From: Marsupella aquatica
Taxonomy: Eukaryota; Plantae; Marchantiophyta
Assembly: GCA_973895155.1 (NCBI GenBank)
Contig: OZ316899.1
Coordinates: 891,573-955,572, forward strand
DNA length: 64,000 bases
Direction: 5' to 3'
Every line of letters starts with the position of its first letter. The first letter of the stretch is position 1. Position numbers and translations under genes: made by a program. Below the pieces are notes generated by a model that had not been told where the DNA came from, did no database searches, and saw nothing but the letters and a program-made list of their open reading frames with translations. This document shows positions 2,062-62,474 of the stretch, one piece after another.

Positions 2062-2087
2062 AGTGTGCAGCGTCCCCGCAAACACAC

Positions 2088-8190: not shown

Positions 8191-8200
8191 AAAACAAGGG

Positions 8201-20591: not shown

Positions 20592-20602
20592 GCCTGCGCA
20601 TG

Positions 20603-20746
20603 AGATAGACTCTACAATTTAGCAGACTGCACAGAAAGTAAAATATATTTAGCATTTAAGGTACAAAGGCATTTAGATAGACTCTACAATTTAGCAGACT
20701 GCACAGAAAGTAAAATATATTTAGCATTTAAGGTACAAAGGCATTT
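20603..20746. repeat. Perfect 72-bp tandem duplication
   Basis: 20603..20674 = 20675..20746. Confidence 0.95.
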
Positions 20747-26430: not shown

Positions 26431-27133
26431 CTCACATGTGGGCAGCCATCGAGTGACTTAGCAAACAGGTTGGTTTGGACATAAAAGAACCAATGCAAAT
26501 GACTTAGCAAAAAGTTCAATGTGGGGAGAGTGCACTTTGGTCAAGAACAAGGCCAAATATAGTCAGGTATGAATCCACATTATAAGTGAAAGTACCCACC
26601 ATTCTGATGAAAACCCCCATATTTATACCCATTATATTTGGACCTCGCCAACCATGAGTGTGCAATATGTAGTTGCACCGGGAGTTGCATATTAGGGATT
26701 GGCATCCGAAATTGGCTAATGGGGTATGCATGCTGATGGAATTTTAAAAAATGATGTCCAATTCATATTGCACTATTGTGGAGTAACTAACATAACTTAC
26801 CTATTTCTTACTTACCAGTGTTACAATAGCGACATTGGATAAAGTTGTAAGCATGACTTCCCACAACCTCACCAAAACTTAGTTGGTATGATGTAACTAA
26901 CATGACACCCACAAACTTGGAGTCGCATATTTATGAAGGTCTCGCACAAGTCACATAGGGGAGGGTCTCAGAATGGGTGGTTTTCTTCTAGTGCGTCTTA
27001 CGGCTACTTCCAACGGGACTTAGCAACGGGATGGCGAACGCGAATTGAAGAAAAGGCAAATTAGACTTCGGGCGCTCACTCCTAACTTAATTCCTGCCAC
27101 CTCTGTTGATTCTACCAGCTTCCCCACTCCTTA

Positions 27134-31494: not shown

Positions 31495-31945
31495 AAGGGG
31501 AAGAAGAGGAGACAGCCTTGGCCAAAGAGAAGGATTTACTTGGGGGAGAATGGCCAGAGGACATCCGGCGGCTTGCAGAAAGACGAAGCAGCCCTCCAAC
31601 CACGATAGAAGAAATCCGAAAGGCGGCTTGGGAACAAAGGTCGCGGTGGTTGATGCCGATGACTACTACTCACTCCACCTATGCGCAAGAAAGAGCCATG
31701 GAGTACGGGGAGATGTGTGGGGAACTTGCGCTCAACATCTTTGGAGAGGAGTTGGAGCAGGGACCATTTTTCCAGAGGGAGATGTTGGAAAAATGCCGAT
31801 TGGAAGAAGCGATGGCTTTGGAGAGAAGAAAGAAGGACAAGGTCATCCGACGGCTTAGGCAGAAGACCTGAAGGCGGCCAAGAAAGCCCAAGATCAGCTG
31901 CGGATTAAGCGGCATGAGCTAAACATCACGAGGGGCAACTAGATA
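31495..31945 (+). pseudogene. Isolated fragment of an F2-type LTR ORF in opposite orientation
   Basis: ALAKEKDLLGGEWPEDIRRLAE..AMEYGEMCGELAL.IFGEELEQGPFFQREMLEK; homology stops just before the CACTA TIR. Confidence 0.85.
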
Positions 31946-31951: not shown

Positions 31952-31971
31952 CACTAGTACATTTTAGGGCC
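31952..31971 (+). repeat. Candidate CACTA terminal inverted repeat (TSD candidate CTT)
   Basis: CACTAG start followed immediately by the subterminal motif array; partner end not in window. Confidence 0.6.
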
Positions 31972-32183
31972 ATTATCCGATAGCTATTCCGTTGGATCCC
32001 TTTGGAAACTTCATTTCGGAAAAATCAACTATCCGATGTAACCTGCTTCGCAATATCCCATCCAATCCTCATCGGACATCAACCATCGGACTTACTTCGG
32101 ACTTTCCGTTGCTGATGCCGACGGACTTTCCGATTCCAAGCCATTCGCAAACCTGCACATCCGATCCAATACATATCGGACAC

Positions 32184-35100
32184 TATGGCACGGTTCCCAA
32201 GACCTCTAACACCGAGAACTACCCTCAACTGATCATAAACCACTTGGTTATGTCGGTCCTCTGTCCTTACGGCAGCTATTCAGCTTGGAAACATGATACT
32301 CTCCTTGGGTCCACACTTACCGGATTGATTCTTTCACTGGGCTTGTGAATTGTGCACAACTGAGATACCTAATTCCTCCTTAACTTCTTCAGGTATATTT
32401 GTATTCCGCCCCCGGAATGTACCTCTACGGCTTAATTTCTTAAGCCGACTGAAGGTCTTTTTTAGACTGACTCAACCCACACTTCACCGACTAACACTCT
32501 CAATCCTCACTGTTCTCTCAGAGTTTGATTTGGGCAGTCTCCAATCAAGGCAATGCGATTGTATTTTGCTCAACAGTTCACCCTATCTGACTTTAATCGA
32601 TCAAGCAACAAATATCATAACACTCAACTTCTTGGATGACAAGAATCTGCGAACTATGCAACGAAGCCAACTCAATTCAAACAATTGCTCAGAAATCCAA
32701 GGGAACTGGTGGTTTACTGATACCTTGCGGTCTAGATTTAGCCGAGAGCTTCCTGTGTTTACAACAATATAGATTAACACTAAAGCCTTGACTAAGAAAA
32801 AGCCCCTGAAACCACGCTGCCCAGGTTTTTATCCTTGCAGCGCTTTCAAAAAAACAACAGAGATCCTAACCACCACACATGGCCTTCCACCGCGATAATC
32901 CTAAAAAAAACTATCACCTAAAAACTTGAATAGCCCGGAACCCTGTGTGAATCGAGCATCTACTACTATCCAAGCCGACAGGGCGCTACTTGCCCTATCC
33001 CATCCTACAACGGCCGCGCCCTTCTGGCCCAAGCCCTTCTCCTGCCGCCACGTCCTCCTTCCAACCGATGACTGGCCCTCCTTAATTGTCAGATGACCGG
33101 GGGTAAGTCCGAATCTTCCGACTCTACACCTTCTCCTGCCATCAGCCCTGGCCCGACCCTTCGGCTTCTGTTTTGCCGGCCCCGGCACCGGTCTCGGCAT
33201 CGGCATCTGCATCTGCATCCGCATCCTCCTGGGAAACGGCTTGGAGAGCCTTTGCCTTAACTTCCTCAATCCAAGCCTTTTCCCCGATGCGCTCGGTCTT
33301 GATAATCCACGGTTTCACGTTCTGTGTGTCCATAGAAGCAATACCATCGTCTAAACTTGTTACCGCAACTCCAAGTTGATCCGCAGTACTTACCTCTACC
33401 ACCGCTGCCTTCAGGGCCACAGTACCACAAATGTGAGCAGCCATGCTCTTGACTTCCTCCGGAGTGGCTTTAAGGGTTTTAACTTTATTATCGCCTGGCC
33501 CCATGAACGTCTTTGCCAAGTCTGCCACCAACTGCATGGCTTTGCCCCCAGTCACACTTGACAACAGAGAGCTTGGCTTCGGCTTCGGCTTCACTATATT
33601 TCCGCCTACCATACTACTGTCGGGAAGCCTTTCAGTTGGTGACCCATATCCCGCTTCGGCATACTTCTTCAATTTCTGCGTTTGATTGTCGGCACGCCTC
33701 TGCAGCTCGATCATCTTATCCTTGGCATCCTCCAATTCTTGAGATACGTCTTCAACTTCATCGTTAAGCCGTAGTATCTCGGCCTTGGCCATCTTCAACT
33801 CCTCATTTAAGATCTGGACGATCTCCAACTCTTGTTTATCTACGGATGCTTTCAAGGAGTCGTTGATACCTTCCAGTTTTGTGACCTTGTTCGTCCATGC
33901 TTGCTTTGTCCTGGTTAGCTCCTCTTGAAGCTCCTTGCGTATCTGTTGAACCCGGTTTAGGTGATCATTGGCCGCCGTGCACATGGCGTCATCATGCTTT
34001 CCACACATGGTCTCCAACCGGTCGAGTAACTTATCATACTTCCTTTGGGCTTCTACCAAGGCCTTTTCGCTCTGGGTGGCCTGCTCCTTAGCCGTCTTTC
34101 TGAGCCTCTCAACTTGGCGATTTAAACCCTGTACCTCTACTTTTGAATCGGCTAACTCCAGCTCTATCTTCGTCAACTTTTCCTTGATCTGCTGGTTATC
34201 CAATTGGTAGTTTTCCAATTGGTTGTTTGCCACGTCCAATTCCTGCTGCCTAGCCAAGAGATCCTACTGAGTTGGTTGAGCAGACTTTGTCTTAGCAACT
34301 TCGGCCTCCATGGAGCGAAGCCGAGCAATTACTTCCTCCTTCTTCAATCGCTCCAATGTCATTGCCTCCTCTAGTCTCGTCTGATCAGCCATTTCTTTTC
34401 TAAGAAATGGCCCGGATTCCAACTCGTTGCCGAAGATTTCTAAGGCTAAGAGTCCACACATGTATCCATACTCCTTAGCCCAATTTCTTGCATAGTTTGA
34501 CCTCCCAGGTGATACTGGCATCTGCCATCAAGGTCGTCTCTCCCAAGCTTTAGCCCGTAATTGGTCAAAGTTAGTGAGAGGTTCGGCTTGCCTCTCACTA
34601 AGCCGTCTTATTCCTTCTGGCCACTCACCTCCTGGTAGCTGGTATTCGTGTTCTGCATTCCGGGCCCCCCACTCCTTAATCTTCTCATGTAGCCCGGCTT
34701 CAGCTTCCTTCATCTTGTCGAATTCCAATGGCGTCACATCTGGTGGAGGAGATTCTGGCATTTTTTGGTCCTCCGGTTTGCCATAGAAGACCGCGGGAAG
34801 TCTTCTACAAAACCTTCCCATCGTTCTAACTCCTGGGACCGGCCTCTCCCCATGATCGACATAGTCATTGTTGTAATCATCCACATTGACCTGACTACCT
34901 AACATGTCAGCCTCTCCTCCAAAGCCCCCAATCTCCTCCTCTGAAAATTGTTGGGCTGCAGCTGGTTGACCTTCCACCATGGATCCGTTCACTTGGGCTC
35001 TGTTAGAAGCTTTTACAACCAGCCTCTCCTGGCCTCGGCTTACCTCCTCGTCTATCTCCGAATCCATTCGCTCGTCATATTTCTTTCTCTCTTCGGCAGT

Positions 35101-36800
35101 CATCTTCCTCTCGACCAACTGGATGCCTGCATATGGATTATTGCGAGTAGGCCGGCGTAACGGATTTCTCACTACACCATATGTTACTACCTCTGGCCCC
35201 TTGATAGGGGAATGCTCGCGTTCTCGTGTTGCTTGTGTTGCCAACCTCCTCCCGTGGCGTCGTATGTTTAGAGGCTCCTTGTCCTCCTCCACTTCCTCAA
35301 GTGGTGCAGTGATCTGCATCCGCTCCTGTATAGGCAACACTGGTGCAAAAGATTGGCTTCTTGCATAACGGCAAAGCAATTGCAGATGGTACCCTAGTCT
35401 GGATACCGCTCCCTCCCCAATGCTCTGCTTCTCTTCGTTTAATGCCTTCTTTAACTGCATTAAGAGATAGCCGTTGTAGTCTCGGCTTGCATCGATATTC
35501 TCTACCAAAAATACCTGGGCTTTGCCGATTTCTGCTCTCGGCAAGGTACAATGCAATGTGACTCTCAGGAAATCAATCAGCTGCCCTATATGTGGGTTGG
35601 TACATTGATTCCTAAAAAACCCATTCTTAGTGGAAGGCCCTGGAAATGACCTGAACTGGTCGTCCGGCAACGTCTTCCTCTGCTCCACCTTTGTTTTCCT
35701 TCCTGTTGGTAAAGCGAACACGGCTTCGATAAGCGCAGGAGTTAATTCGAACACCTTTCCATACAGCAGCGTTGTGTTGGAAGAAGCCTCCCAGCATCCC
35801 ACGAAGTCCAACAGATCCTCATCCGGTATGTCTACCATTCTCCAAGGCAACCTGACAAAGCCCTCCAACCTAGTGTCATTCATATATCCTGCATATTTGT
35901 TATCCTGAACGGCACTGAAGACCTCATCCTCATCTCTTGCGAACTGTAATTGTAAATCGGCAGGTAACTTGTTCGCCCACCCTTTCATGTTTTTATCTTC
36001 TACAGCCCGATCTCTAATTGGCCCGGATTCCATCTTGATTGGTCTCTCCAACCTAGTTCGCTTTGTTGGAGTTGTAGATGCCGAACCTCCCTTGCGCTTC
36101 ATCTCTTCAGTGCCTGAATACTCCCCAAGAATAGCTGCCTTCGTCCACTTTGCAGTGTGACCCTTCAATTCCCAAAGTGGTTGCCCGGCATTCTTGATTG
36201 CCTCCCTGATCCCCACAACCTTATTCTCCCGAATTAGCAATTTGTCAAGCTCCGCACTGGTGGGTGTCCACGAGAACTTTTCCAATACCTCCTCCGTATC
36301 TACGAATGCCGATTTGTGAATTCCCCACAATCGCGCAAGCTCTGCTCGTTCTCTGGCTGCGCGCTCCGGCTCAACATCTTCATACGTAGGTATCAGCTGC
36401 CTTGCTTCTTCAAGCAAACAGGCCCAAAACTTCCTTGCCTGATTCACCGTGTTCATTCCACCGAATGCCAAGAACCTGCGCAATTTCTCAAACCACCTCC
36501 CCCGTTCAATTGGCAGCTGATTCGCTAGGTTGATTGAACAAGCAATTGCACTAGTGTACAGAGTGTCGGTCCCCTCCTTACGAAGTCGCCTCCTGATGGC
36601 TTGCGTGATCAAACCCTGATTAGGTCATAACCCTAATCCCACTTAATCGCGACCGTTGGATCAGATCCCATCACAATTTCCCCCGAACATATTGAAATCG
36701 GCTTCGATCTTTATAACTCCCTAATTATATCTACCTAATCTTTATTTAGCCATTATTTTAGGCTTAACTAAGTACTTCGTGATCCTGGCACGGCATCACA
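32184..36800 (-). mobile_element. Solo LTR (4617 bp) of an F2-related family
   Basis: TSD GACAC at 32179..32183 and 36801..36805; ends GGCATCACA like F2; start TATGGCACGGTTCCCA aligns to F2 TGTGGTGCGTCCCA; no PBS, PPT or pol adjacent. Confidence 0.85.
33142..36612 (-). pseudogene. LTR-encoded PMD-like plus coiled-coil protein inside the solo LTR (one frame, two premature stops)
   Basis: ORFs 34528..36612, 34264..34521 and 33142..34257 are in one frame separated by TGA and TAG; strongly similar to 58751..62410; likely start ATG 36456. Confidence 0.9.
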
Positions 36801-37355
36801 GACACCAACAAACACACCTGTCTCAAAACGACCATTGTCCAATAGTAATGGTATGGGATAGTTCCATAGTTTTTGCTACGTACATTGCGATGCATGGAGT
36901 ATCGGAGTTTACGATACGGTTAGTATCGGAGTTTGTCTCTGGAGAATTATCGGATGTTGCGTTAGACCTCGTATCGGATATTGCGATGTAATGAGGTTTG
37001 GAAAATCCAATGACGGTGCCATCGGACACATTGCTTTGATGTTCTTCTTTTGTTGGAGGGGTCCGATGCAAAAAGGATCGGATGCTGTGAAGGGGATTGA
37101 AACGGAAGGACCGATGAAGGTGCAAACGGACATCATAACGGATGGCTTTGTTACAATAGCTAGGGTTTCATGGGTGGTTATTTTGGGTTTGAGAACATCA
37201 ACCAATATATTAGGGTCCAAAGGAGGCTCAAAACATGTGGTCAAAATCTCATATTGAAAAAGGGGATGACCCTGATATGTATAGAATGGAATGGGCCTAC
37301 CTAGTAGACCCATCTCGGCGACTGTTTGCTCCATGGGAACACCTAAATGGAGCAC

Positions 37356-40300
37356 TGTGGTGCGTCCCATGGCTCCCTAAACCCAAGAAACCCCCCCAGC
37401 TCAAGCCGATTCCCGCAGGTTTCGCGCTTGGCGAGGCCGTTTCCGCGGTTTAGCGGCATGGGACGCTGCTAACTTCCTTCTACTACTACTATTAACATTT
37501 TACACACATATACTGGACAGATCCTTCATCGGGTCATGAGATACGTAGCCGGCCTAATCTAGGCCTTCCCTTGTCTTCCCCTCCATCTTGTTAGGTATGT
37601 TTGGATTCCGCCGCCGGAATGATCCCCAATAGGCTTGGTTAAGCCGCTAAGACCTCTCTCAGCTCGACACATCCAACTCTCACTCCCTTGCTTACTTTCC
37701 TTCCTTCTGGTTGATGTGGGCACTCTTCACACAAGTTAATGCGACACACAAATAGCAAAATGACTCCTTCTGACTGAGTCATACCATGCACTTGCCATAC
37801 AAACAGTACATCTCATACACAAGCTCTGCGAACTAAGCCGTGAGGCCAACTCTATTCAGCTCTTAGGCATGAGGAAACATGAATATACACAAGGTCACGG
37901 TATGACCAACCGAGAGCTTCTCTTACTACTTGATCCCAGCCCGGCTGGTGCAAACTAAAAACTTGCTAAAGAAGAGGCCCTGAGCTCCCCGCTGCCCAGG
38001 TATTTATCCTGGTAGTGGATCCGCCTAATTCTTTGCAGCGTAAGCCTAATCTACCTATGTACAGCAAGGCAGGAGCACAAGTGTTGCTCCTGCCAGTGGA
38101 ACCGCAATTCCACTAAGCTAAGTGTCAGGGCCACCTCCTGGTCCTGATCCTAATCCTAAACTTGGAGATCAGCGCCCGCCCTGCCCACTCACGCCTCCTA
38201 CCTCCATGTCCGCCCTTCCTAAAAGGAACGGCGCCCTTGCACCGTCACAACACCGGTGGTGGACCCTCAATGGACGCCCCCAACGCTTCCTCCTCAGCCA
38301 CTGTCGTAGGTTCGTTCTCTGACAGATTACCTGCCCTTGACTGAGTCAACTCTCCATCGGCCTGACTGGGTCTACCATCGGCATCGGCGTCGGCTTGGGA
38401 ATCATTCTCGGCTACGGCCTCAGCCTCGGCCATGGTCTCCCCGGCCTGCTCAAGAGGCGGATCTGGGATACCGGCCTCATTATTGAGTAGTTTGGCTTGG
38501 GCCGCGTCATCCCCACCTTTGGTGATAGCGGAATCTATTGTCGTGTTCATGCCGGAGGTTGGTGCTGGGTCTACCTCCTTGGTCACCACGGCCAGCGGAG
38601 TCGTATTACTCTTCGACCCTGAAGGTTTCCGCTTCTTCTTCTTTTCTGGTTCGGCAGCTGGTCCCTTCCCCTTCCCACTTACTTCCGGCACTGGTGCAGG
38701 TGGCGCGGCTTGTTCTTCGGCCAGTACCACTCCTGGTAACTTGGTTGCCCCAATTGGAGTTGGGCCTGATGAAGACAAGCACTTAAATACTGCGGCTTGT
38801 TTCTTCAGCCGCTCTGTTTGGTTGTCGGCCCGCCGCTGTAGGTTCTCCATCTTTCTCGTGATTTCCTCCAACTCCTCCTGCACCTCGTCCAGGTCCTTGC
38901 AAGCCTCCTCTAGTTCCTTCTGGGCTTCCTCCCGTTCCCTGTGGGCTTCCTCCAGTTCTTTCTTCAAGGTAGCCCTCTCCTCCCGGGTTGCTCTTAGCTC
39001 CTTGTCGAGCTCTGCAATGATGACAGACTCCATCTGGTTCATCTTGGCGTAAGTCTGATCGAGCATCTCGTCCTTCTCCCGTAGGTCGGCCTTGAAGCTG
39101 GCCGTCAGGGACGCAAGCTCCTGCTGCAGGGCCATAATCCCTTGATAGGATTTCCCTAACTCGGCCTCCTTCTGCTCAAGGGCTCCGCGGATTTTCTCGA
39201 GCTCCCCCTTCAATGCCCATTCCTTTCTTTGGGTCTCCGCCATGGCCCGGTTGTTGGCTGTTATGTGGGCCTCCTCTGCATTCCTCAGCTCTCGCTTCCA
39301 TTTCTCCCTGTCCTTGATTGCGTCGGCCAACTCTCCTTGGGTCCGCGTCAGTAGATTCTCGATCATCCGATTATCAAATTGTGCGGTATCCAACTGGCCC
39401 TGCATGATATTTAGCTCATGCCGCTTAATCCGCAGCTCATCTTGGGCTTTCTTGGCCACCCTCAGGTCCTTGATTTCGGCTTCCCTTTCCCTAAGCCGAC
39501 GGATGACCTCGTCCTTCTTGCTTCTTTCCAAGGCCACCGCTTCTTCTAATTGGCGCTTCTCCAACATCTCCCTCTGGAAAAAGGGTCCCTGCTCCAACTC
39601 CTCCCCAAAGATGCTGAGCGCCAGTTCTCCACACATCTCCCCATACTCCATGGCTCTGTCTTTAGCATAGGTGGAGGAAGTAGAAGTCATCGGCATCATC
39701 CACCGCGGCCTCTGCTCCCAAGCCGTCTTGCGGATCTCTTCAATCGTGGCTAGAGGTTTACTTCCTTTTTCGGCTAGCCGCTTGATGTCCTCCGGCCAAT
39801 CTCCTCCTGGCAAATCCTTTTCCCTAGCCAGGGCTTCCTTCTCTTCCTGCCTGATTCGCTCCTGAAATTCCTGCGCCGTCTGTTTTATGCCGTCAAAGCT
39901 CGGGGGAGCAACATCTGGTGGGGGAGACTCAGGGCTACTCTGCTGGTTGGGGTCCCCCCGTACTACCCTTGGAAGTGTGGGGATAAACCGGCCACAGGTC
40001 CTTACTCCTGGAACGTGATGGTCCGACCCATAGCCGGAGTTATCATGGCTGCAGTCCTCCACTGCCTCCTCTACTTCTTGGACTTCCGGCTTCTCCCTCT
40101 CCTCTTCGTCGGTAGGAGCTTCAGGCAATTCTGCCTCAGATTCAGAGCTTGAGACTCCCACGTATATTCGAACACCCGGCTTGGATTCTGGCCTGATTCT
40201 CTCCTTGTCTCCAGTAAAGGGGTTTTCCCTTGTAAGCCGGTGTAGGCCTACCTCTGGAGCAGTGTCCTGCATTGTTTCCGTTGCCGTTGTCGTTGCCGAT

Positions 40301-42019
40301 GCCGATCTCTTTTCTTTCTCCAGTAGTTTCAGCAGATTCTGCATGCCTGGTTGCTGCATCGGCAAGTCCTCTGTCCTTGGCCTAAACACCTACTCAATCG
40401 TAGGGCTAACAGGTGGTTGAGGCTTCTCTGCTACCAGCCTCGGTGCTGGAGCTTCCTCGGGTGTCCTTACCTGCAGGGGAAGTACTGGGGCAAAGGTCTG
40501 ACCTCTGGCATACTGGCACAACAGCGGCATGTGATAGCCAAGCCGCAACAAGCTCCCCAGGCCGATTACCTGCTGCTCCTCCTTTAAGATCTTCAATTGG
40601 TTGAGGAGGTACCCGTTGTAGTCTCGGCTTGGGTCTGGCCTCTCTGCCAGATAGACCTGTGCCTTGCCGATCTCTGCCCTCGGCAAGTTACAGTGCATTG
40701 TCACCCGCAAGAAGTCGATCATCTCTCCTATGTGTGGGTTGGTGCAGGTGTTCCGGAAGAAGCCATTCTTCGTTGATGGCCCGGGGAACGACCGGAACTC
40801 CTTGTCAGGCAAGGTCTTCCTGGTATCAACTTTGGTCTTATTGCCTATCGGCAAGCCAAACACTTCGGCAATCACCTTGGGAGTAAGATAGAAATCCTTC
40901 CCATATATCCTCGTGCAATTGGTCTCGGGTTCCCATGACCCCACGAATTCTAATAGGTCTGAATCCGGTACCTCCGACTTCAGCCATGGTAATCTTACAA
41001 AGGCCTCTAAGCCAGATCCGGCCATGAAGCCTTGGTACTTCTTGGTCTGCATGGCCGTAAAGCATGCATCCTCCTCCCGTGCAAAATGTAGTTGCACCTC
41101 CACCGGTAGGGTTGCCGCCCAGCCTTTCCAGGTGTCATCCCTGGTTGGAATGGCATTGATGGGATCGACCTCCTCCTCTTCGGCTTTTACCTGCCTCCTG
41201 CTCTACTGCTCGGCTGGCTTCTTTGGTGCCGCCGACCTCGTTCTTTTTGCCGGGGTGGCTTCATTGTTGACGGCTCCCTTCCTCTTCATCTCTGCTGCCG
41301 TGGAGGTTTCTCCTAGCACCGTTGCCGGGGTCCACCTTTCCGTGCTACCCTTCAATTCCCAGTGTATGTCGTTGCAGTTCTTGATGGCCTCTTGAATGCC
41401 GATGATTCTGTCTTTACAAAACAGAAGATCGTCGAGCTGATTGGAAGTAGGAGTCCACAAGAACTCGGCGTTGATGAGTTTGCCTCCTAAGAAAGTCGTC
41501 TTCTGCAGCTCCCACAATCGAGCGAGCTCCTGCCGTTCTCGAGCTGCCCTTTCTGATTCCTCGTCCTCGTAAGTCTTGATGTACTCAGTTGCCCGTTCGA
41601 ACAGGCATCCCCAGAAATGTGCCGCTTGATTGACGTTGCTCATACCCTCCTTAGGTCGATCGTCGGTATCTACTCTCTCCCCGAGTGCTTGCCTAAGCAG
41701 CTAACAGTAGTTGGCCTCCCGTAGTCGTCTGCCTAGTTTGTGCTCGCAAATGAGCCACCATCTCCTGCAAGCGCTCCTTACCCCTCTCCTCTTCCGGTCC
41801 TTCCTCCCGTTGATCCTTCCTAGCCACCGACGCTTAACGTGCCCTAACCCTAATCGAGTTTTCACCCCCAACGTCCTTACCTCCGGCCTCGGCCCGGGTT
41901 CCATGGTCGCCCCTAATTGTTTATATTTTCCTTGTTTTGTCCCTATACTAAGGTGTTTCTAGGGTGCACTCCTGCTTTACCCACTTAACTGGCCGAGTGA
42001 TTCCTGGCTAGGCATCACA
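37356..42019 (-). repeat. F2 LTR copy A (4664 bp)
   Basis: TGTGGTGC...GCATCACA termini; PPT at 42020..42032. Confidence 0.92.
38245..41643 (-). pseudogene. LTR-encoded protein, copy A (in-frame stops at 41203 and 40390)
   Basis: Collinear with 58751..62113; the stops correspond to CAG in copies B and C. Confidence 0.92.
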
Positions 42020-44773: not shown

Positions 44774-47700
44774 TGTGGTGCGTCCCATGGCTCCCTAAAC
44801 CCAAGAAACCCCCCAGCTCAAGCCGATTCCCGCAGGTTTCGCGCTTGGCGAGGCCGTTTCCGCGGCTTAGCGGCATGGGACGCTGCTAACCTTCTACTAC
44901 TACTATTAACATTTTACACACATATACTGGACAGATCCTTCATCGGGTCATGAGATACGTAGCCGGCCTAATATAGGCCTTCCCCTGTCTTCCCCTGTCT
45001 TCCCCTCCGTCTTGTTAGGTATGTTTGGATTCCGCCGCCGGAATGATCCCCAATAGGCTTGGTTAAGCCGCTAAGACCTCTCTCAGCTCGACACATCCAA
45101 CTCTCACTCCCCTGCTTACTTTCCTTCTTTCTGGTTGATGTGGGCACTCTTCACACAAGTTAATGCGACACACAAATAGCAAAATGACTCATTCTGACTG
45201 AGTCATACCATGCACTTGCCATACAAACAGTACATCTCATACACAAGTTCTGCGAACTAAGCCGTGAGGCCAACTCTATTCAGCTCTTAGGCATGAGGAA
45301 ACATGAATATACACAAGGGTCACTGTATGACTAACCGAGAGCTTCTCGTACTACTTGATCCCAGCCCGGCTGGTGCAAACTAAAAACTTGCTAAAGAAGA
45401 GGCCCTGAGCTCCCCGCTGCCCAGGTACTTATCCTGGTAGTGGATCCGCCATTCTTTGCATCGTAAGCCTAATCTACTTAACAGTAATCTACTTGCCCGA
45501 ATCTACCTATGTACAGCAAGGCAGGAGCACAAGTGTTGCTCCTACCAATGGGACCGCAATCCCACTAAGCTAAGTGTCAGGGCCGCTCCTGGTTCTGATC
45601 CTAATCCTAAACGTGGAGATCCGTGCCCGCCCTGCCCACTCACGCCTCCTCCCTCCACGTCCGCCCTCCCTAAAAGGAACGGCGCCCTTGCACCGTCACG
45701 ACACCAGTGGTGGATCCTCAATGGACGCCCCCAACACTTCCTCCTCAGCCACTGCCGTTGGCCCGCCTACTGACAGATTACCTGCCCTTGACCGAGTCAA
45801 CTCTCCCTCGGCCTGACTGGGTCCACCTTCGGCTTCAGCCTCGACACCGGCCTCGGCAATACCCACGGCTTCGGCTTCAGCCATCCCCACGGCTTCGGCT
45901 TCAGCCACTCCCTCGGCTTCGGCCTCCCCTTCCCCTAGGGTAGTTGGATCCTTAGCTGTGACCCTGTCTGGGGTCGGTGCCGGGTCTACCTCCTTGATCA
46001 CCACGGCCTGTGAAGTCGTATTACTCCTTGACCCTGAAGGTTTCCGCTTCTTCTTCGTTGGTGGCTCGGCAGCTGGTCCCTTCCCCTTCCCACTTACCTC
46101 CGGCACTGGTGCAGGTGGCGCGGCTTGTCCTTCGGCAATTACCACCCCTGGTAACTGGTTTGTCCCAACAGGAGATGGACCTGCTGCAGCTAAGCATTTA
46201 AATACTGCGGCTTGTTTCTTCAGCCGCTCTGTTTGGTTGTCGGCCCGCCGCTGTAGGTTCTCCATCTTCCTCGTGATTTCCTCCAACTCCTCTTGGGTTT
46301 CATCCAGGTCCTTACGTGCCCCCTCCAGCTCGTTTTTGGCCTCCTCCTGCTCCCTGTGGGCTTCCTCCAATTCCTTCTTCAAGGTAGCCTTCTCCTCCTG
46401 GGTTGCTCTTAGCTCCTTGTCGAGCTCTGCAATGATGACAGACTCCATCTGGTTCATCTTGGCGTAAGTCTGTTCGAGCATCTCGTCCTTCTCCCTTAGG
46501 TCGGCCTTGAAGCTGGCCGTCAGGGACGCAAGCTCCTGCTGCAGCGCCATAATCCCTTGATAGGATTTCCCTAACTCGACCTCCTTCTGCTCAAGGGCTC
46601 CGCGGATTTTCTCGAGCTCCCCTTTCAACGCCCATTCCTTTCTTTGGGTCTCCGCCATGGCCCGGCTGTTGGCTATTATGTGGGCCTCCTCTGTATTCTT
46701 CAGCTCTTGCTTCCACTTTTCCCTTTCTTTGATCGTGTCGGCCAACTCTTCCTGCGTCTGAGTCAGTTTATCCTTGATATTCTGATTATCAGCCTGCGCG
46801 GCGTCCAACTGCCCCTGCATGATGTTCAGCTCATGTCGTTTAATCCGCAGTTCATCTTGGGCTTTCTTGGCCGCCCTTAGATCTTCAATCTCGGCTTCCA
46901 TCCTCCTAAGCCGCCGAATGACCTCGTCCTTCTTGCTTCTCTCTAAAGCCACCGCTTCTTCTAATTGGTGCTTCTCCAACTGCTCCCTATGGAAAAAGGG
47001 TCCTACCTCCAACTCCTCTCCAAAGATGCCGAGCGCAAGTTCCCCACACATCTCACCATACTCCATGGCTCTATTCTTAGCGTAGGTGGAGTAAGTAGAA
47101 GTGATCGGCATCGCCCATCGTGGCCTCTGCTCCCAAGCCGTCCTGCGGATCTCTTCAATCGTGGCTAGAGGTTTGCTTCCTTTTTCGGCTAGCCGCCTGA
47201 TGTCCTCCGGCCAATCTCCTCCTGGTAAATCCTTTTCCTTAGCCAGGGCGGCCTCTTCCTCCTGCTTGATTCGCTCCTGAAATTCCTGCACCGTCTGTTT
47301 TATGCCGTCGAAGCTCGGGGGAGCAACATCTGGTGGGGGAGACTCAGGGCTACTCTGCTGGTTGGGGTCCCCTCGCACTACCCTTGGAAGTGTGGGGACA
47401 AACCGGCCACAGGTCCTTACTCCTGGAACGTGATGGTCCGACCCATAGCCGGAATTATCATGGCTGCAGTCCTCCACTGCCTCCTCTACCTCTTGGATTT
47501 CCGGCTTCTCCCTCTCCTCTTCCTCGGTAGGAGCTTCGGGCAATTCTGCCTCAGATTCGGAGCTTGAGGTTCCCACGTACATTCGAACACCTGGCTTGGA
47601 TTCCGGCCTGATTCTCTCGTCTCCAGCAAAGGGGTTTTCTCTTGTGAGCCGGTGTAGGCCTACCTCTGTAGTAGTGTCCTGCATGGTTGCCGTTGCCGTT

Positions 47701-49431
47701 GTTGTTGCCGATGCCGATTTCTTTTCTTTCTCCAGTAGTTTCAGCAGACTCTGCATGCCTGGTTGCTGCATCGGCAAGTCTTCCTTCCTGGGCCTAAACA
47801 CCTGCTCGATCGTAGGACTAACAGGTGGTTGAGGCTTCTCAGCCAACGGCCTCGGCGTTGGAGCTTCCTCGGGTGCCCTTACCTGCAGGGGAAGTACCGG
47901 GGCAAAAGTCTGACCTCTGGCATACCGGCACAACAGCGGCATGTGATAGCCAAGCCGCGACACGCTCCCCATGCCGATTACCTGCTGCTCCTCCTTTAAG
48001 ATCTTCTTCAATTGGTTGAGGAGGTACCCGTTGTAGTCCCGGCTTGGGTCTGGCCTTTCTGCCAGATAGACCTGTGCCTTGCCGATCTCTGCCCTCGGCA
48101 AGTTACAATGCATGGTCACCCGCAAGAAGTCGATCATCTCTCCTATGTGCGGGTTGGTGCAGGTGTTCCGGAAGAAGCCATTCTTCGTTGATGGCCCGGG
48201 GAACGACCGGAACTCCTTGTCAGGCAAGGTCTTCCTGGTATCAACTTTGGTCTTATTGCCCATCGGCAAGCCAAACACTTCGGCAATCACCTTGGGAGTA
48301 AGATAGAAATCCTTCCCATATATCCTCGTGCAATTGGTCTCGGGTTCCCATGACCCCACGAATTCTAATAGGTCTGACTCCGGTACCTCCGGCTTCAGCC
48401 ATGGTAATCTTACAAAGGCCTCCAAGCCGGATCCGGCCATGAAGCCTTGGTACTTCTTGGTCTGCATGGCCGTAAAGCATGCATCCTCCTCCCGTGCAAA
48501 ATGTAGTTGCACCTCCACCGGTAGGGTTGCCGCCCAGCCCTTCCAGGTGTCATCCCTGGTTGGAATGGCCTTGATGGGATCGACCTCCTCCTCTTCGGCT
48601 TCTCCCTGCCTCCTGCTCTGCTGCTCGGCTGGCTTCTTTGGTGCCGTCGACCTCGTTCTTTTTGCCGGGGTGGCTTCATCGTTGACGGCTCCCTTCCTCT
48701 TCATCTCTGCTGCCGTGGAGGTTTCTCCTAGCACCGTTGCCTGGGTCCACCTTTCCGTGCTACCCTTTAATTCCTAGTGTATGTCGTTGCAGTTCTTGAT
48801 GGCCTCTCGGATGCCGACGACGCTGTCCTTGCAAAACAGAAGATCGTCGAGTTGATTGGAAGTAGGCGTCCACAGGAACTCGTCCTTGATGAGTTCGCCT
48901 CCTAAGAAAGCCGTCTTCTGCAGCTCCCACAATCGAGCGAGCTCCTGCCGTTCTCGAGCTGCCCTTTCTGACTCCTCGTCCTCGTAAGTCTTGATGTACT
49001 CAGTTTCTCGTTCGAACAGGCATCCCCAGAAATGTGCCGCTTGATTGACGTTGCTCATACCCTCCTTAGGTTGATCGTCGGTATCTACTCTCTCCCCGAG
49101 TGCTTGCCTAAGCAGCTGACAGTAGTTGGCCTCCCGTAGTCGTCTGCCTAGTTCGTGCTCGCAAATGAGCCACCATCTCCTGCAAGCGCTCCTTACCCCT
49201 CTCCTCTGCCGGTCCTTCTTCCCGTTGATCCTTCCTAGCCGCCGACGCTTAACGCGCCCTAACCCTAATCGGGTTTTCACCCTCAGCCTTACCTCCGGCC
49301 TCTGCCCGGGTTCCATGGTTGCCCCTAATTGTTTATATTTTCCTTGTTTTGTCACTATACTAAGGTGTTCCTAGGGTGCCTTCCTGCTTTACCCACTTAA
49401 CCGGCCGAGTGATTCCTGTCTAGGCATCACA
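44774..49431 (-). repeat. F2 LTR copy B (4658 bp), 3' LTR of the nested element
   Basis: Same termini; nearly identical to copy C; PPT at 49432..49446. Confidence 0.93.
45696..49058 (-). pseudogene. LTR-encoded protein, copy B (single TGG>TAG stop at 48774)
   Basis: Otherwise only about a dozen residues differ from copy C. Confidence 0.92.
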
Positions 49432-53752: not shown

Positions 53753-53799
53753 TACCTACGCTTCCGTTCTAACTTCATATCTCACGGCTTAAGAAATGC

Positions 53800-53817: not shown

Positions 53818-53821
53818 AAAA

Positions 53822-54621
53822 TGTGGTGCGTCCCATGGCTCCCTAAACCCAAGAAACCCCCCAGCTCAAGCCGATTCCCGCAGGTTTCGCGCTTGGCGAG
53901 GCCGTTTCCGCGGCTTAGCGGCATGGGACGCTGCTAACCTTCTACTACTACTATTAACATTTTACACACATATACTGGACAGATCCTTCATCGGGTCATG
54001 AGATACGTAGCCGGCCTAATATAGGCCTTCCCCTGTCTTCCCCTGTCTTCCCCTCCGTCTTGTTAGGTATGTTTGGATTCCGCCGCCGGAATGATCCCCA
54101 ATAGGCTTGGTTAAGCCGCTAAGACCTCTCTCAGCTCGACACATCCAACTCTCACTCCCCTGCTTACTTTCCTTCTTTCTGTTGATGTGGGCACTCTTCA
54201 CACAAGTTAATGCGACACACAAATAGCAAAATGACTCATTCTGACTGAGTCATACCATGCACTTGCCATACAAACAGTACATCTCATACACAAGTTCTGC
54301 GAACTAAGCCGTGAGGCCAACTCTATTCAGCTCTTAGGCATGAGGAAACATGAATATACACAAGGGTCACTGTATGACTAACCGAGAGCTTCTCGTACTA
54401 CTTGATCCCAGCCCGGCTGGTGCAAACTAAAAACTTGCTAAAGAAGAGGCCCTAATCGAGTTTTCACCCCCAGCGTCCTTACCTCTGGCCTCGGCCCGGG
54501 TTCCATGGTTGCCCCTAATTGTTTATATTTTCCTTGTTTTGTCCCTATACTAAGGTGTTTCTAGGGTGCACTCTTGCTTTACCCACTTAACTGGCCAAGT
54601 GATTCCTGGCTAGGCATCACA
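53822..54621 (-). repeat. Chimeric, internally deleted F2 5' LTR (800 bp)
   Basis: Left part carries B-type variants, right part A-type variants, joined at CCCT 54450..54453. Confidence 0.88.
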
Positions 54622-57364: not shown

Positions 57365-58750
57365 GTCCGATTGTTTTCACTTCGGAACGTCCGTAGCGTA
57401 TAGTATCGAATGTCAAATCGGACCTTCCGATGCGTGTTGCATCGGACCCCTCCTCCAGCTCGTTATTCCTCGCTTTTACGAAGTGTGATACGTTGGAAAT
57501 GGTATCGGACCCCTCGTGTAATGTTATCAAATAGGGGGTTAAGTAGGGCTTATGTAGGGGTCATGTAGGTGTATGTGGGAAGGACCGGTTGTATTAACAT
57601 TTAATCGTCATGTATGTTTGAATCAGGTTTTATAGGGCCATACATGTAGACACATACCGCAGGGGGTTGGCAACGGTGTCGTGGATGTGATATATCGACC
57701 TTCTTGCAATTTTGGGGTTTGTACCTGAATCCAGATTTTTTTGTGATATACTTTGGTTATCCATGTTCAATTTGCTAATATTCGTCTTTGGGTTTGATGT
57801 GCAGTACCTTGGTTTTGAAGGGGTGGTTATGTGGTGCGTCCCATGGCTCCCTAAACCCAAGAAACCCCCCAGCTCAAGCCGATTCCCGCAGGTTTCGCGC
57901 TTGGCGAGGCCGTTTCCGCGGCTTAGCGGCATGGGACGCTGCTAACCTTCTACTACTACTATTAACATTTTACACACATATACTGGACAGATCCTTCATC
58001 GGGTCATGAGATACGTAGCCGGCCTAATATAGGCCTTCCCCTGTCTTCCCCTGTCTTCCCCTCCGTCTCGTTAGGTATGTTTGGATTCCGCCGCCGGAAT
58101 GATCCCCAATAGGCTTGGTTAAGCCGCTAAGACCTCTCTCAGCTCGACACATCCAACTCTCACTCCCCTGCTTACTTTCCTTCGTTCTGTTGATGTGGGC
58201 ACTCTTCACACAAGTTAATGCGACACACAAATAGCAAAATGACTCATTCTGACTGAGTCATACCATGCACTTGCCATACAAACAGTACATCTCATACACA
58301 AGTTCTGCGAACTAAGCCGTGAGGCCAACTCTATTCAGCTCTTAGGCATGAGGAAACATGAATATACACAAGGGTCACTGTATGACTAACCGAGAGCTTC
58401 TCGTACTACTTGATCCCAGCCCGGCTGGTGCAAACTAAAAACTTGCTAAAGAAGAGGCCCTGAGCTCCCCGCTGCCCAGGTACTTATCCTGGTAGTGGAT
58501 CCGCCATTCTTTGCATCGTAAGCCTAATCTACTTAACAGTAATCTACTTGCCCGAATCTACCTATCTACAGCAAGGCAGGAGCACAAGTGTTGCTCCTAC
58601 CAGTGGGACCGCAATCCCACTAAGCTAAGTGTCAGGGCCGCTCCTGGTTCTGATCCTAATCCTAAACGTGGAGATCCGTGCCCGCCCTGCCCACTCACGC
58701 CTCCTCCCTCCACGTCCGCCCTCCCTAAAAGGAACGGCGCCCTTGCACCG

Positions 58751-61700
58751 TCACGACACCGGTGGTGGATCCTCAATGGACGCCCCCAACACTTCCTCCG
58801 CAGCCACTGCCGTTGGCCCGCCTACTGACAGATTACCTGCCCTTGACCGAGTCAACTCTCCCTCGGCCTGACTGGGTCCACCTTCGGCTTCAGCCTCGAC
58901 ACCGGCCTCGGCAATACCCACGGCTTCGGCCTCAGCCACTCTCACGGCTTCGGCTTCAGCCACTCCCTCGGCTTCGGCTTCCCCTTCCCCTAGGGTAGTT
59001 GGATCCTTAGCCGTGACCCTGTCTGGGGTCGGTGCTGGGTCTACCTCCTTGATCACCACGGCCTGTGAAGTCGTATTACTCCTTGACCCTGAAGGTTTCC
59101 GCTTCTTCTTCGTTGGTGGCTCGGCAGCTGGTCCCTTCCCCTTCCCACTTAATTCCGGCACTGGTGCAGGTGGCGCGGCTTGTCCTTCGGCAATTACCAC
59201 CCCTGGTAACTGGTTTGTCCCAACAGGAGATGGACCTGCTGCAGCTAAGCATTTAAATACTGCGGCTTGTTTCTTCAGCCGCTCTGTTTGGTTGTCGGCC
59301 CGCCGCTGTAGGTTCTCCATCTTCCTCGTGATTTCCTCCAACTCCTCTTGGGTTTCATCCAGGTCCTTACGTGACCCCTCCAGCTCGTTTTTGGCCTCCT
59401 CCTGCTCCCTGTGGGCTTCCTCCAATTCCTTCTTCAAGGTAGCCCTCTCCTCCTGGGTTGCTCTTAGCTCCTTGTCGAGCTCTGCAATGATGACAGACTC
59501 CATCTGGTTCATCTTGGCGTAAGTCTGTTCGAGCATCTCGTCCTTCTCCCTTAGGTCGGCCTTGAAGCTGGCCGTCAGGGATGCAAGCTCCTGCTGCAGC
59601 GCCATAATCCCTTGATAGGATTTCCCTAACTCGACCTCCTTCTGCTCAAGGGCTCCGCGGATTTTCTCGAGCTCCCCTTTCAACGCCCATTCCTTTCTTT
59701 GGGTCTCCGCCATGGCCCGGCTGTTGGCTGTTATGTGGGCCTCCTCTGTATTCTTCAGCTCTTGCTTCCACTTTTCCCTTTCTTTGATCGTGTCGGCCAA
59801 CTCTTCCTGCGTCTGAGTCAGTTTATCCTTGATATTCTGATTATCAGCCTGCGCGGCGTCCAACTGCCCCTGCATGATGTTCAGCTCATGTCGTTTAATC
59901 CGCAGTTCATCTTGGGCTTTCTTGGCCGCCCTTAGATCTTCAATCTCGGCTTCCATCCTCCTAAGCCGCCGAATGACCTCGTCCTTCTTGCTTCTCTCTA
60001 AAGCCACCGCTTCTTCTAATTGGTGCTTCTCCAACTGCTCCCTATGGAAAAAGGGTCCTACCTCCAACTCCTCTCCAAAGATGCCGAGCGCAAGTTCCCC
60101 ACACATCTCACCATACTCCATGGCTCTATTCTTAGCGTAGGTGGAGTAAGTAGAAGTGATCGGCATCGCCCATCGTGGCCTCTGCTCCCAAGCCGTCCTG
60201 CGGATCTCTTCAATCGTGGCTAGAGGTTTGCTTCCTTTTTCGGCTAGCCGCCTGATGTCCTCCGGCCAATCTCCTCCTGGTAAATCCTTTTCCTTAGCCA
60301 GGGCGGCCTCTTCCTCCTGCTTGATTCGCTCCTGAAATTCCTGCACCGTCTGTTTTATGCCGTCGAAGCTCGGGGGAGCAACATCTGGTGGGGGAGACTC
60401 AGGGCTACTCTGCTGGTTGGGGTCCCCTCGCACTACCCTTGGAAGTGTGGGGACAAACCGGCCACAGGTCCTTACTCCTGGAACGTGATGGTCCGACCCA
60501 TAGCCGGAATTATCATGGCTGCAGTCCTCCACTGCCTCCTCTACCTCTTGGATTTCCGGCTTCTCCCTCTCCTCTTCCTCGGTAGGAGCTTCGGGCAATT
60601 CTGCCTCAGATTCGGAGCTTGAGGTTCCCACGTACATTCGAACACCTGGCTTGGATCCCGGCCTGATTCTCTCGTCTCCAGCAAAGGGGTTTTCTCTTGT
60701 GAGCCGGTGTAGGCCTACCTCTGTAGTAGTGTCCTGCATGGTTGCCGTTGCCGTTGTTGTTGCCGATGCCGATTTCTTTTCTTTCTCCAGTAGTTTCAGC
60801 AGACTCTGCATGCCTGGTTGCTGCATCGGCAAGTCTTCCTTCCTGGGCCTAAACACCTGCTCGATCGTAGGACTAACAGGTGGTTGAGGCTTCTCAGCCA
60901 ACGGCCTCGGCGTTGGAGCTTCCTCGGGTGCCCTTACCTGCAGGGGAAGTACCGGGGCAAAAGTCTGACCTCTGGCATACCGGCACAACAGCGGCATGTG
61001 ATAGCCAAGCCGCGACACGCTCCCCATGCCGATTACCTGCTGCTCCTCCTTTAAGATCTTCTTCAATTGGTTGAGGAGGTACCCGTTGTAGTCCCGGCTT
61101 GGGTCTGGCCTTTCTGCCAGATAGACCTGTGCCTTGCCGATCTCTGCCCTCGGCAAGTTACAATGCATGGTCACCCGCAAGAAGTTGATCATCTCTCCTA
61201 TGTGCGGGTTGGTGCAGGTGTTCCGGAAGAAGCCATTCTTCGTTGATGGCCCGGGGAACGACCGGAACTCCTTGTCAGGCAAGGTCTTCCTGGTATCAAC
61301 TTTGGTCTTATTGCCCATCGGCAAGCCAAACACTTCGGCAATCACCTTGGGAGTAAGATAGAAATCCTTCCCATATATCCTCGTGCAATTGGTCTCGGGT
61401 TCCCATGACCCCACGAATTCTAATAGGTCTGACTCCGGTACCTCCGGCTTCAGCCATGGTAATCTTACAAAGGCCTCCAAGCCGGATCCGGCCATGAAGC
61501 CTTGGTACTTCTTGGTCTGCATGGCCGTAAAGCATGCATCCTCCTCCCGTGCAAAATGTAGTTGCACCTCCACCGGTAGGGTTGCCGCCCAGCCCTTCCA
61601 GGTGTCATCCCTGGTTGGAATGGCCTTGATGGGATCGACCTCCTCCTCTTCGGCTTCTCCCTGCCTCCTGCTCTGCTGCTCGGCTGGTTTCTTTGGTGCC

Positions 61701-62113
61701 GTCGACCTCGTTCTTTTTGCCGGGGTGGCTTCATCGTTGACGGCTCCCTTCCTCTTCATCTCTGCTGCCGTGGAGGTTTCTCCTAGCACCGTTGCCTGGG
61801 TCCACCTTTCCGTGCTACCCTTTAATTCCCAGTGTATGTCGTTGCAGTTCTTGATGGCCTCTCGGATGCCGACGACGCTGTCCTTGCAAAACAGAAGATC
61901 GTCGAGTTGATTGGAAGTAGGCGTCCACAGGAACTCGTCCTTGATGAGTTCGCCTCCTAAGAAAGCCGTCTTCTGCAGCTCCCACAATCGAGCGAGCTCC
62001 TGCCGTTCTCGAGCTGCCCTTTCTGACTCCTCGTCCTCGTAAGTCTTGATGTACTCAGTTGCCCGTTCGAACAGGCATCCCCAGAAATGTGCCGCTTGAT
62101 TGACGTTGCTCAT
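58751..62113 (-). CDS. Intact LTR-encoded protein (1120 aa from ATG 62113; open frame from 62410): N-terminal helical region, PMD-like core, second conserved block, long coiled coil, AE-repeat tail
   Basis: Uninterrupted 1219-codon frame wholly inside the LTR; M[SN]xVNQA..FW start shared with the solo-LTR homologue. Confidence 0.9.
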   Translation of the reverse strand: MSNVNQAAHFWGCLFERATEYIKTYEDEESERAARERQELARLWELQKTAFLGGELIKDEFLWTPTSNQLDDLLFCKDSVVGIREAIKNCNDIHWELKGSTERWTQATVLGETSTAAEMKRKGAVNDEATPAKRTRSTAPKKPAEQQSRRQGEAEEEEVDPIKAIPTRDDTWKGWAATLPVEVQLHFAREEDACFTAMQTKKYQGFMAGSGLEAFVRLPWLKPEVPESDLLEFVGSWEPETNCTRIYGKDFYLTPKVIAEVFGLPMGNKTKVDTRKTLPDKEFRSFPGPSTKNGFFRNTCTNPHIGEMINFLRVTMHCNLPRAEIGKAQVYLAERPDPSRDYNGYLLNQLKKILKEEQQVIGMGSVSRLGYHMPLLCRYARGQTFAPVLPLQVRAPEEAPTPRPLAEKPQPPVSPTIEQVFRPRKEDLPMQQPGMQSLLKLLEKEKKSASATTTATATMQDTTTEVGLHRLTRENPFAGDERIRPGSKPGVRMYVGTSSSESEAELPEAPTEEEEREKPEIQEVEEAVEDCSHDNSGYGSDHHVPGVRTCGRFVPTLPRVVRGDPNQQSSPESPPPDVAPPSFDGIKQTVQEFQERIKQEEEAALAKEKDLPGGDWPEDIRRLAEKGSKPLATIEEIRRTAWEQRPRWAMPITSTYSTYAKNRAMEYGEMCGELALGIFGEELEVGPFFHREQLEKHQLEEAVALERSKKDEVIRRLRRMEAEIEDLRAAKKAQDELRIKRHELNIMQGQLDAAQADNQNIKDKLTQTQEELADTIKEREKWKQELKNTEEAHITANSRAMAETQRKEWALKGELEKIRGALEQKEVELGKSYQGIMALQQELASLTASFKADLREKDEMLEQTYAKMNQMESVIIAELDKELRATQEERATLKKELEEAHREQEEAKNELEGSRKDLDETQEELEEITRKMENLQRRADNQTERLKKQAAVFKCLAAAGPSPVGTNQLPGVVIAEGQAAPPAPVPELSGKGKGPAAEPPTKKKRKPSGSRSNTTSQAVVIKEVDPAPTPDRVTAKDPTTLGEGEAEAEGVAEAEAVRVAEAEAVGIAEAGVEAEAEGGPSQAEGELTRSRAGNLSVGGPTAVAAEEVLGASIEDPPPVS

Positions 62114-62386
62114 ACCCTCCTTAGGTTGATCGTCGGTATCTACTCTCTCCCCGAGTGCTTGCCTAAGCAGCTGACAGTAGTTGGCCTCCCGTAGTCGTCT
62201 GCCTAGTTCGTGCTCGCAAATGAGCCACCATCTCCTGCAAGCGCTCCTTACCCCTCTCCTCTGCCGGTCCTTCTTCCCGTTAATCCTTCCTAGCCGCCGA
62301 CGCTTAACGCGCCATAACCCTAATCGGGTTTTCACCCTCAGCCTTACCTCCGGCCTCTGCCCGGGTTCCATGGTTGCCCCTAATTG

Positions 62387-62392
62387 TTTATA
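62387..62392 (-). promoter_or_regulatory. TATAAA near the F2 LTR tip (equivalent box at 36710..36715 in the solo LTR)
   Basis: 95 nt inside the LTR start, upstream of the LTR ORF; positionally shared by three LTR types. Confidence 0.55.
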
Positions 62393-62474
62393 TTTTCCTT
62401 GTTTTGTCACTATACTAAGGTGTTCCTAGGGTGCCTTCCTGCTTTACCCACTTAACCGGCCGAGTGATTCCTGT

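Follow-up and report, generated by a model that had tools for sequence, protein, structure and literature searches.

Can the long terminal repeat (LTR) of a plant retrotransposon carry a large protein-coding gene, and does the gene persist when a single LTR is all that is left of the element? This question is raised by a 4617-bp insertion in the genome of the liverwort Marsupella aquatica. The insertion lies at 32184-36800 (minus strand) in a stretch of 64,000 nucleotides from contig OZ316899.1 (assembly GCA_973895155.1, positions 891,573 to 955,572), and we will call the whole stretch the window. We found that the insertion holds an accessory gene of about 1100 codons, which makes up 72% of the LTR, and that this gene lies inside the LTR. 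Such a gene breaks the assumption that plant LTRs are non-coding and that solo LTRs are neutralised remains. (Annotation pipelines look for extra open reading frames, or ORFs, in the internal region only.) From its sequence, the insertion is most likely a solo LTR of a Ty3/gypsy-type family. Our preferred reading, which we consider reasonably probable, is that the solo LTR arose by recombination and carries a broken 1104-codon gene for a VANC21-like protein, and that intact copies of the protein would bind a TGCCGA-like word and counter the silencing of their family.

An earlier note on this DNA had described a 4617-bp unit between two copies of GACAC, without gag or pol, and had read it as a solo LTR. 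The description was borne out, and the reading is most likely right. The minus strand of the unit starts with TGTGATGCC, as do the LTRs of a sibling family in the window, and it ends with CCATA. The unit has TA where CA would be expected (the siblings have TG...CA), and the terminal C position is in a CHG context with the flank. A Pfam scan found no gag or pol inside 32184-36800. The primer-binding site (PBS), the polypurine tract (PPT), and the internal coding region are not beside the unit; both flanks are sequence from a host element. The note had also named, beforehand, a check for the empty site in paralogous copies of the host element, and we ran this check with Logan contigs. In all 4 of the 4 public runs, which come from 2 studies, we found contigs in which position 32183 runs on into what lies past the second GACAC, with just one GACAC. 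Therefore, the unit was inserted cleanly at precisely these borders, with duplication of 5 bp. Each run contains at most 0.42 of the sampled words, so the empty sites are from paralogous host copies or from other individuals, and not from the 32184 locus itself.

The solo LTR is the most likely identity of the unit because of the target-site duplication, the empty site, the homology of both ends to sibling LTRs that are bounded by a PPT and a PBS, and a step in sequencing depth (see below). The match to PPT- and PBS-bounded ends is known through the sibling family, within the 64-kb window. We are confident that the solo LTR arose by recombination between two LTRs. Alternatively, the unit might have moved as a one-LTR unit, or it might be the remnant of another type of deletion. 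The window has no full-length copy of the solo's own family, and a nearby deletion did fuse two nested elements. The gag-pol of that family was not seen either, which counts against our reading. However, the exact 5-bp duplication, the intact ends, and the clean empty site are the standard signature of a solo LTR, and other deletions would not preserve both the duplication and the ends. We consider these alternatives to be very improbable.

The sibling family shows where the gene lies. Three sibling 3' LTRs (A, B, and C) begin with TGTGATGCC immediately past the end of the integrase and a PPT. All three hold a homologous ORF and end with CACCACA, and both of their ends align with the ends of the solo. 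In one copy, a PBS comes right behind the 3' end of the LTR, and the nested pair of sibling elements as a whole lies between the two copies of a GTGCT duplication. These elements have gag, a fragment of reverse transcriptase, and then integrase as the last domain, with no match to a chromodomain in Pfam, which is the order of Ty3/gypsy non-chromoviruses. A second RNase H (aRH, a trait of Tat, Ogre, and Retand elements) had no match in what remains of the sibling pol, which is deleted or cut by the edge of the window. The closest named relatives of the integrase are from Riccia and Marchantia, at 44-49%, while integrases of flowering plants are at 35-39%.

The depth of contigs from the public runs also places the gene in the LTR. 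(These figures are summed contig depth, not copy number.) The depth of the sibling ORF relative to the integrase was 4.3, 4.9, 3.4, and 2.5 in the four runs, with a fall at the PPT border, and the depth of the sibling 3' non-coding part relative to the ORF was 0.95, 1.3, 1.4, and 3.75 (1.0-1.5 for the solo's family). If single long contigs are used instead, the ratio of ORF to integrase is lower, at about 1.5-2.7. By either measure, the depth of the ORF tracks the LTR, so the ORF belongs with the LTR and not with the internal region. Together with the PPT upstream of the ORF in three siblings and the homologous ends, this supports the claim of the earlier note that the ORF is inside the LTR.

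Two observations weigh against this placement. First, in run X4, the sibling 3' end is 3.75x deeper than its ORF. Second, the window has no intact 5' LTR that bears the ORF; its sole 5' LTR is just 800 bp and lacks the ORF. This short LTR is explained as a chimera of A and B that was formed by a deletion: the 5' 170 nt match copy A at 12/14 diagnostic sites, the 3' 628 nt match B/C at 25/25 sites, and the two parts are joined at an AGGG microhomology. We also considered that the 800-bp LTR might be a spliced form or a regular form without the gene, but we rejected this, as splicing at GT-AG would miss the junction by one base, there is microhomology at the junction, and the LTR is an A/B chimera. 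A related possibility is that the true LTR is short (630-800 bp) and that the ORF is an ordinary extra ORF at the 3' end of the internal region, as in Athila. The 800-bp LTR is the only one in the window that adjoins a PBS, and a 633-bp repeat recurs four times. But three copies have the PPT ahead of the ORF, the junction of the chimera is not among the best-supported 15 of 112 joints in the public runs, and the depth of the ORF follows the LTR instead of the integrase. A short LTR is largely refuted already, and we give it hardly any credence.

Is the gene in the solo LTR still functional? The frame (33142-36624) has 1160 codons from stop to stop, with the first ATG at 36456, which is 345 nt into the unit, and it has no frameshift. 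(The earlier note gave 1156 codons and two stops of the C>T type; the length needed correction, and the two stops stand.) Both premature stops are in CG or CHG contexts, which fits an origin from C>T changes, as judged from the sibling residues. The protein would begin with an N-terminal region and a motif that resembles a nuclear localization signal (NLS). A globular core (roughly residues 147-381) would come next, and then a variable linker, a likely coiled coil, and an acidic tail. The solo's ORF and the ORF of sibling C are 45% identical overall and 65% identical in the core, with a saturated rate of synonymous substitutions (dS), and the ratio of nonsynonymous to synonymous rates (dN/dS) between sibling copies A and C is 0.335. 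The conservation at saturated synonymous sites and the low dN/dS imply that the gene is under purifying selection in the family.

The solo copy itself is very probably a decaying pseudogene, because it has two stops, the first of which (at residue 643) cuts off the coiled coil, and because the number of stops fits neutral decay. Roughly 4 stops would be expected under neutral decay, versus 2 seen; this expectation uses a rough divergence of 2.8%, from the share of words, which includes differences between individuals. For the same reasons, the earlier idea that this LTR could act in trans or be domesticated is not supported for this copy. If it were functional, it would encode a 642-residue protein with the NLS and the DNA-binding core but without the coiled coil, which might act in trans or as a dominant negative. 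In favour of this, neither stop falls before the end of the core, the frame is not shifted, and the AT-rich box at the 5' end is present. Still, 2 stops versus about 4 is what neutral decay would give at this divergence, and the locus sits among nested transposons. Also, the sag gene of mouse mammary tumor virus (MMTV) and its relatives is described as being under purifying selection in the family and under none after insertion, as in sag solo LTRs (PMC4667437). We therefore view a functional or domesticated solo as highly unlikely. The value of the solo copy is that it gives an unusually clean proof of the LTR boundary, even though the copy is broken. (We also folded the RNA of the 3' end of the LTR, with three sequences, and the covariation term was unfavourable.)

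Table 1. Features of the solo LTR, its host element, and the sibling LTRs (positions in the window)
Feature	Position	Strand	Basis or remarks
Solo LTR	32184..36800	-	length 4617 bp; ends TG...TA; homology to sibling LTRs at both ends
Target-site duplication, left copy (GACAC)	32179..32183		sequence; single copy at empty site
Target-site duplication, right copy (GACAC)	36801..36805		sequence
Accessory ORF, 1104 codons from ATG, two stops	33142..36456	-	45% amino acid identity to sibling ORF; dS saturated
Premature stop 1, residue 643	34528..34530	-	alignment
Premature stop 2, residue 731	34264..34266	-	alignment
Conserved globular core (about residues 147-381), predicted VANC21/PMD-like fold	35314..36018	-	AlphaFold2 (AF2) pLDDT 73; VIA Z 8.3 over 211 residues; Foldseek top match E 0.7; Atlas Transposase_32/ATHILA 0.88-0.89, lead only
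Predicted long coiled coil past stop 1 (approximate limits)	33580..34400	-	composition; sub-threshold coiled-coil Pfam matches
Bipartite NLS-like motif, residues 120-135, same place in sibling	36052..36099	-	pattern match
3' non-coding part of LTR, 958 bp, likely R/U5 (inferred); short blocks conserved between families	32184..33141	-	alignment
TATAAA at LTR nt 86, sole TATAWA in 4.6 kb; candidate ORF promoter (inferred)	36710..36715	-	sequence
Telobox-like TAGGGTT at LTR nt 166	36629..36635	-	sequence; nt 165-168 in siblings
Host CACTA-like element, CACTAG terminus and subterminal TCCGA repeats	31952..32183		sequence, contig fits
Host element resumes	36806..37355		contigs, repeats
Sibling-family 3' LTR A, 4664 bp	37356..42019	-	directly after integrase end and PPT; ORF with 2 stops
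Sibling-family 3' LTR B, 4658 bp	44774..49431	-	after integrase and PPT; ORF with 1 stop
Sibling-family 3' LTR C, 4657 bp	57830..62486	-	after integrase and PPT; open 1120-codon frame
Chimeric 5' LTR, 800 bp	53822..54621	-	5' part A-type, 3' part B-type; then PBS, gag; GTGCT duplication common with LTR A

To consider what intact copies of the protein might do, we turned to its core. An AlphaFold2 model of the solo's core, from an alignment of 19 rows, had a pLDDT of 73 and a pTM of 0.71. When this model was compared to 48,161 chains, VANC21 was the only one with Z of 5 or above (Z = 8.3, with 211 aligned residues and a root-mean-square deviation, or rmsd, of 4.3); the next match had Z = 2.2. 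Foldseek ranks VANC21 first as well (E = 0.7). Thus, the core is predicted to fold like VANC21. At the level of sequence, a HMMER search found 21 matches, one of which (P0012) is a bacterial repeat protein; the 19-row alignment leaves out P0012, P0006, P0008, P0011, P0016, and P0022. Neither the ORF nor its 21 relatives matched PMD, ATHILA, or Transposase_32 in Pfam (PF03078, PF20167, and PF10536 were unmatched), the ORF had 0 matches in PDB by sequence profile, and a word-based search for homologues of the full sibling ORF found none at E of 0.001 among 7991 candidates. None of the 253 pattern matches to the layout in metagenome loci was confirmed.

If the protein counters silencing, then its target word and the effects of its activity might be visible in the DNA of the family. 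The element that encodes VANC21 has accumulated a short motif to which the protein binds, and its methylation is lowered by VANC21 (PMC5735166). The solo has 10 occurrences of AAGCCGA, versus 0.96 expected (corrected p = 0.00025). More broadly, WGCCGA (where W is A or T) occurs at 4.3-5.0 per kb in the solo, in three full sibling LTRs, and in two sibling internal regions; at 2.0 per kb in the third sibling internal region; at 1.25 per kb in the chimeric LTR; and at about 0.2 per kb in a neighbouring gypsy element and in the upstream CACTA element. Relative to shuffles of synonymous codons, and among some 1400-1500 hexamers, TGCCGA comes second in the solo ORF, first in ORF C, and first in the sibling gag-pro, which is unrelated in sequence to the ORFs. 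TGCCGA is absent from the gag-pol of the neighbouring gypsy element. Similarly, the observed/expected ratio of CpG is 0.64-0.70 in the solo and in the ORF, gag, and pol of the sibling, but just 0.10-0.19 in the gag-pol of the neighbouring gypsy element, which has no LTR gene. Both the retention of CpG and the studding with TGCCGA match what a sequence-specific anti-silencing system would predict.

Several observations count against this functional reading. The match of folds is middling (an rmsd of 4.3, 9% identity, a Foldseek E of 0.7, a helical model, and an alignment of 19 rows). The word was picked from the same data, and it is mostly in coding sequence and dispersed, unlike the tandem non-coding arrays that are targeted by VANC. 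The difference in CpG is relative to a single other element, and age or copy history could explain it. And the fold is not specific to anti-silencing proteins: VANC, which has a coiled coil, shares its fold with MAIN/PMD proteins (PMC13547354), and host MAIN/PMD proteins of this fold promote silencing or oppose Polycomb (PMC13547354, PMC5418596, bioRxiv 10.1101/2024.09.27.615353), so the function cannot be read off from the fold.

The mechanism that we have in mind has several steps. An intact LTR-encoded protein would bind a short family-wide word, such as TGCCGA, and the bound protein would keep the family from host silencing. Reverse transcription copies the LTR to both ends, so the gene would be doubled with every insertion, and a solo LTR would retain it until it decays. 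That the protein enters the nucleus, binds DNA via its VANC/PMD-like core, oligomerises via the coiled coil, and counters silencing in trans is, in our estimation, an evenly balanced proposition. More tentatively, the LTR of liverwort Ty3/gypsy elements may have taken up a VANC-like gene for sequence-specific anti-silencing, together with a promoter of its own. Each insertion would then have two copies, and every young solo LTR would be a free-standing transcription unit that shields all TGCCGA-tagged members of the family in trans. The way in which hosts usually delete retrotransposons would thus spare the counter-defence gene until mutation breaks it, as here. This fuller scenario is doubtful, although possible.

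The protein could have another role with the same architecture, such as targeting of integration, plain transcriptional activation of the LTR, export of RNA, or a scaffold for particles; such roles have been put forward for other accessory ORFs. The middling match is to a fold that is common to PMD/MAIN and probably to the ATHILA and Transposase_32 domains of unknown function, and reviews leave the roles of such accessory ORFs open (PMC7264820). On the other hand, a DNA-binding protector fits better with the retention of CpG and with a family-wide word that contains CpG, and the NLS-like motif is conserved. We regard these other roles as possible but on the unlikely side. If the protein does counter silencing, the PMD-motif modules that oppose Polycomb, by analogy, suggest that its target could be H3K27me3 instead of DNA methylation (bioRxiv 10.1101/2024.09.27.615353).

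If the protein is VANC-like, then a retrotransposon of a non-flowering plant would encode a sequence-specific anti-silencer for which there is already a candidate target word, and the role of the PMD-type accessory genes of gypsy elements would become directly testable. (PMDs encoded by gypsy elements are known; PMC5418596.) Any intact repeat of this type would then bring along its own likely protection from silencing by the host.

How would the gene be expressed from a lone LTR? An ORF promoter at the 5' edge of the LTR is favoured because the single TATAWA and the telobox lie upstream of the ATG, and this is true in both families (the sibling LTRs have a single TATAWA, at nt 95). However, another base is present at 36715, which is the first position of the solo's TATAAA, in 20-100% of the relative depth per run. 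These motifs leave it finely poised whether each LTR is a transcription unit with its own promoter for the ORF. Two layouts remain: the U3 may be long and include the ORF and a promoter for it, as for sag of MMTV, or the U3 may be very short and the ORF may head the genomic RNA. In the sibling LTRs, a sequence close to the splice-donor consensus (AG/GTAAG) also lies some 40 nt past the TATA box (approximately 62342-62350 and 41878-41886), and the solo has no AG/GTAAG at the aligned place.

Both parts of this arrangement are of known kinds: MMTV has a gene in its LTR, and plant transposons encode accessory proteins of the PMD/VANC-like type. The sag gene of MMTV-type viruses is located in U3, an internal U3 promoter has been described for it, and 490/527 sag contigs are solo LTRs (PMC4667437). 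As in our family, the gene is inside the LTR and is retained by solo LTRs. Unlike the liverwort gene, sag belongs to an animal retrovirus and encodes a superantigen; here, the element is a plant Ty3/gypsy, the gene is much larger, and the predicted fold is that of a nuclear DNA-binding protein.

Among plant elements, the extra ORFs of Athila, Ogre, and Retand and ORF0 of Retrosat2 are similar in that they are accessory ORFs in the sense orientation with a PMD/Transposase_32/ATHILA-like core and a coiled coil, and plant non-chromovirus Ty3/gypsy elements also have LTRs of up to about 5 kb and 5-bp target-site duplications (PMC6317226, PMC7264820, PMC3485330, PMC5418596). But the ORFs of Athila, Ogre, Retand, and Retrosat2 are described as internal, placed either ahead of gag or in the interval from pol to the 3' LTR, while the ORF in M. 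aquatica is past the PPT and in the LTR. Because the extra ORF of Athila-, Ogre-, or Retand-type elements lies in the internal region, their solo LTRs lose it. In open-access articles (including PMC12885004 and PMC12859917), without their supplements, we found no published case of an ORF inside a plant LTR, liverworts included.

The VANC proteins of VANDAL Mutator-like transposons resemble the liverwort protein in the predicted fold, the coiled coil, the enrichment of a word across the cognate element, and the signs of low CG methylation (PDB 9LNJ/9LNK; PMC5735166). The differences are that the liverwort protein is encoded by an LTR retrotransposon, is 9% identical, and has its word dispersed in coding sequence instead of tandem non-coding arrays (PMC5735166); its binding and demethylation are predictions. 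Finally, PMD-C proteins of the MAIN/MAIL group are reported to bind short motifs near telobox promoters and to oppose Polycomb (bioRxiv 10.1101/2024.09.27.615353). Going by their descriptions, they are alike in belonging to the VANC fold family (PMC13547354), and a telobox is upstream of the ORF in both of our LTR families; they differ in being host genes of flowering plants (PMC5418596).

The earlier note had host CACTA sequence resuming on both sides of the solo. There are 9 TCCGA/TCGGA repeats in the 232 bp after the CACTAG terminus (31952) and 7 in the right flank, and contigs from runs X1 and X2 begin to fit at 31952, with different sequence before it. The resumption of the host thus holds up, but 0/3 pieces of host-element ORFs matched a CACTA family in Pfam, so the label "CACTA" relies on the terminus. 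One end of this host (31952) is in the window and the far end is beyond it. Gene-bearing LTR elements inserted into the single CACTA-like host (31952-57829) on three separate occasions, at 32183, 37355, and 57829, and the host's subterminal word TCCGA has the CCGA core in common with the family word TGCCGA. From these positions, it is possible that gene-bearing LTR elements target the CACTA-like host. A 440-bp inverted fragment of a sibling-family LTR ORF (31499-31945, plus strand) adjoins the CACTA terminus.

The sibling elements at 37356-54621 form a compound element, in which a younger copy is nested in an older one; a deletion at microhomology then fused the two 5' LTRs, and both pol regions have deletions. 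The PBS after the chimeric 5' LTR (53800-53821) is presumably complementary to the 3' end of tRNA-Asn. Run X3 has a PBS-like loose end at 37356.

A third, GC-rich unit at 11375-14296 (minus strand) starts with TGTGCCTGTGCCA at about 14296, where the frame of a CACTA Tnp2 gene breaks off. Its product would comprise a coiled coil and a homologue of the same core (29% over 203 amino acids, E = 1.5e-19), although the gene is broken. It has one TATAWA, at 14072, and lacks the AAGCCGA word, and its 3' part holds an inserted full gypsy element. Based on its sequence, this unit is likely to be another gene-bearing LTR family. The neighbouring gypsy element (1-11400, minus strand) has an intact gag-pol of 2039 codons, and its LTRs are 100% identical over 2048 bp to the edge of the window. 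It has no LTR gene, yet it has 24-bp CpG-bearing tandem repeats in its LTR. Two overlapping frames at 27110-29402 (plus strand), of 207 and 620 codons, had no match in Pfam and no tblastn match to the solo protein. The CACTA Tnp2 gene (14281-20618, minus strand) has Transposase_21, DUF4218, and DUF4216 domains, with ORFs for tandem BRCT domains and a PHD finger upstream of it. The BRCT and PHD-finger ORFs possibly encode transposon-borne readers of chromatin.

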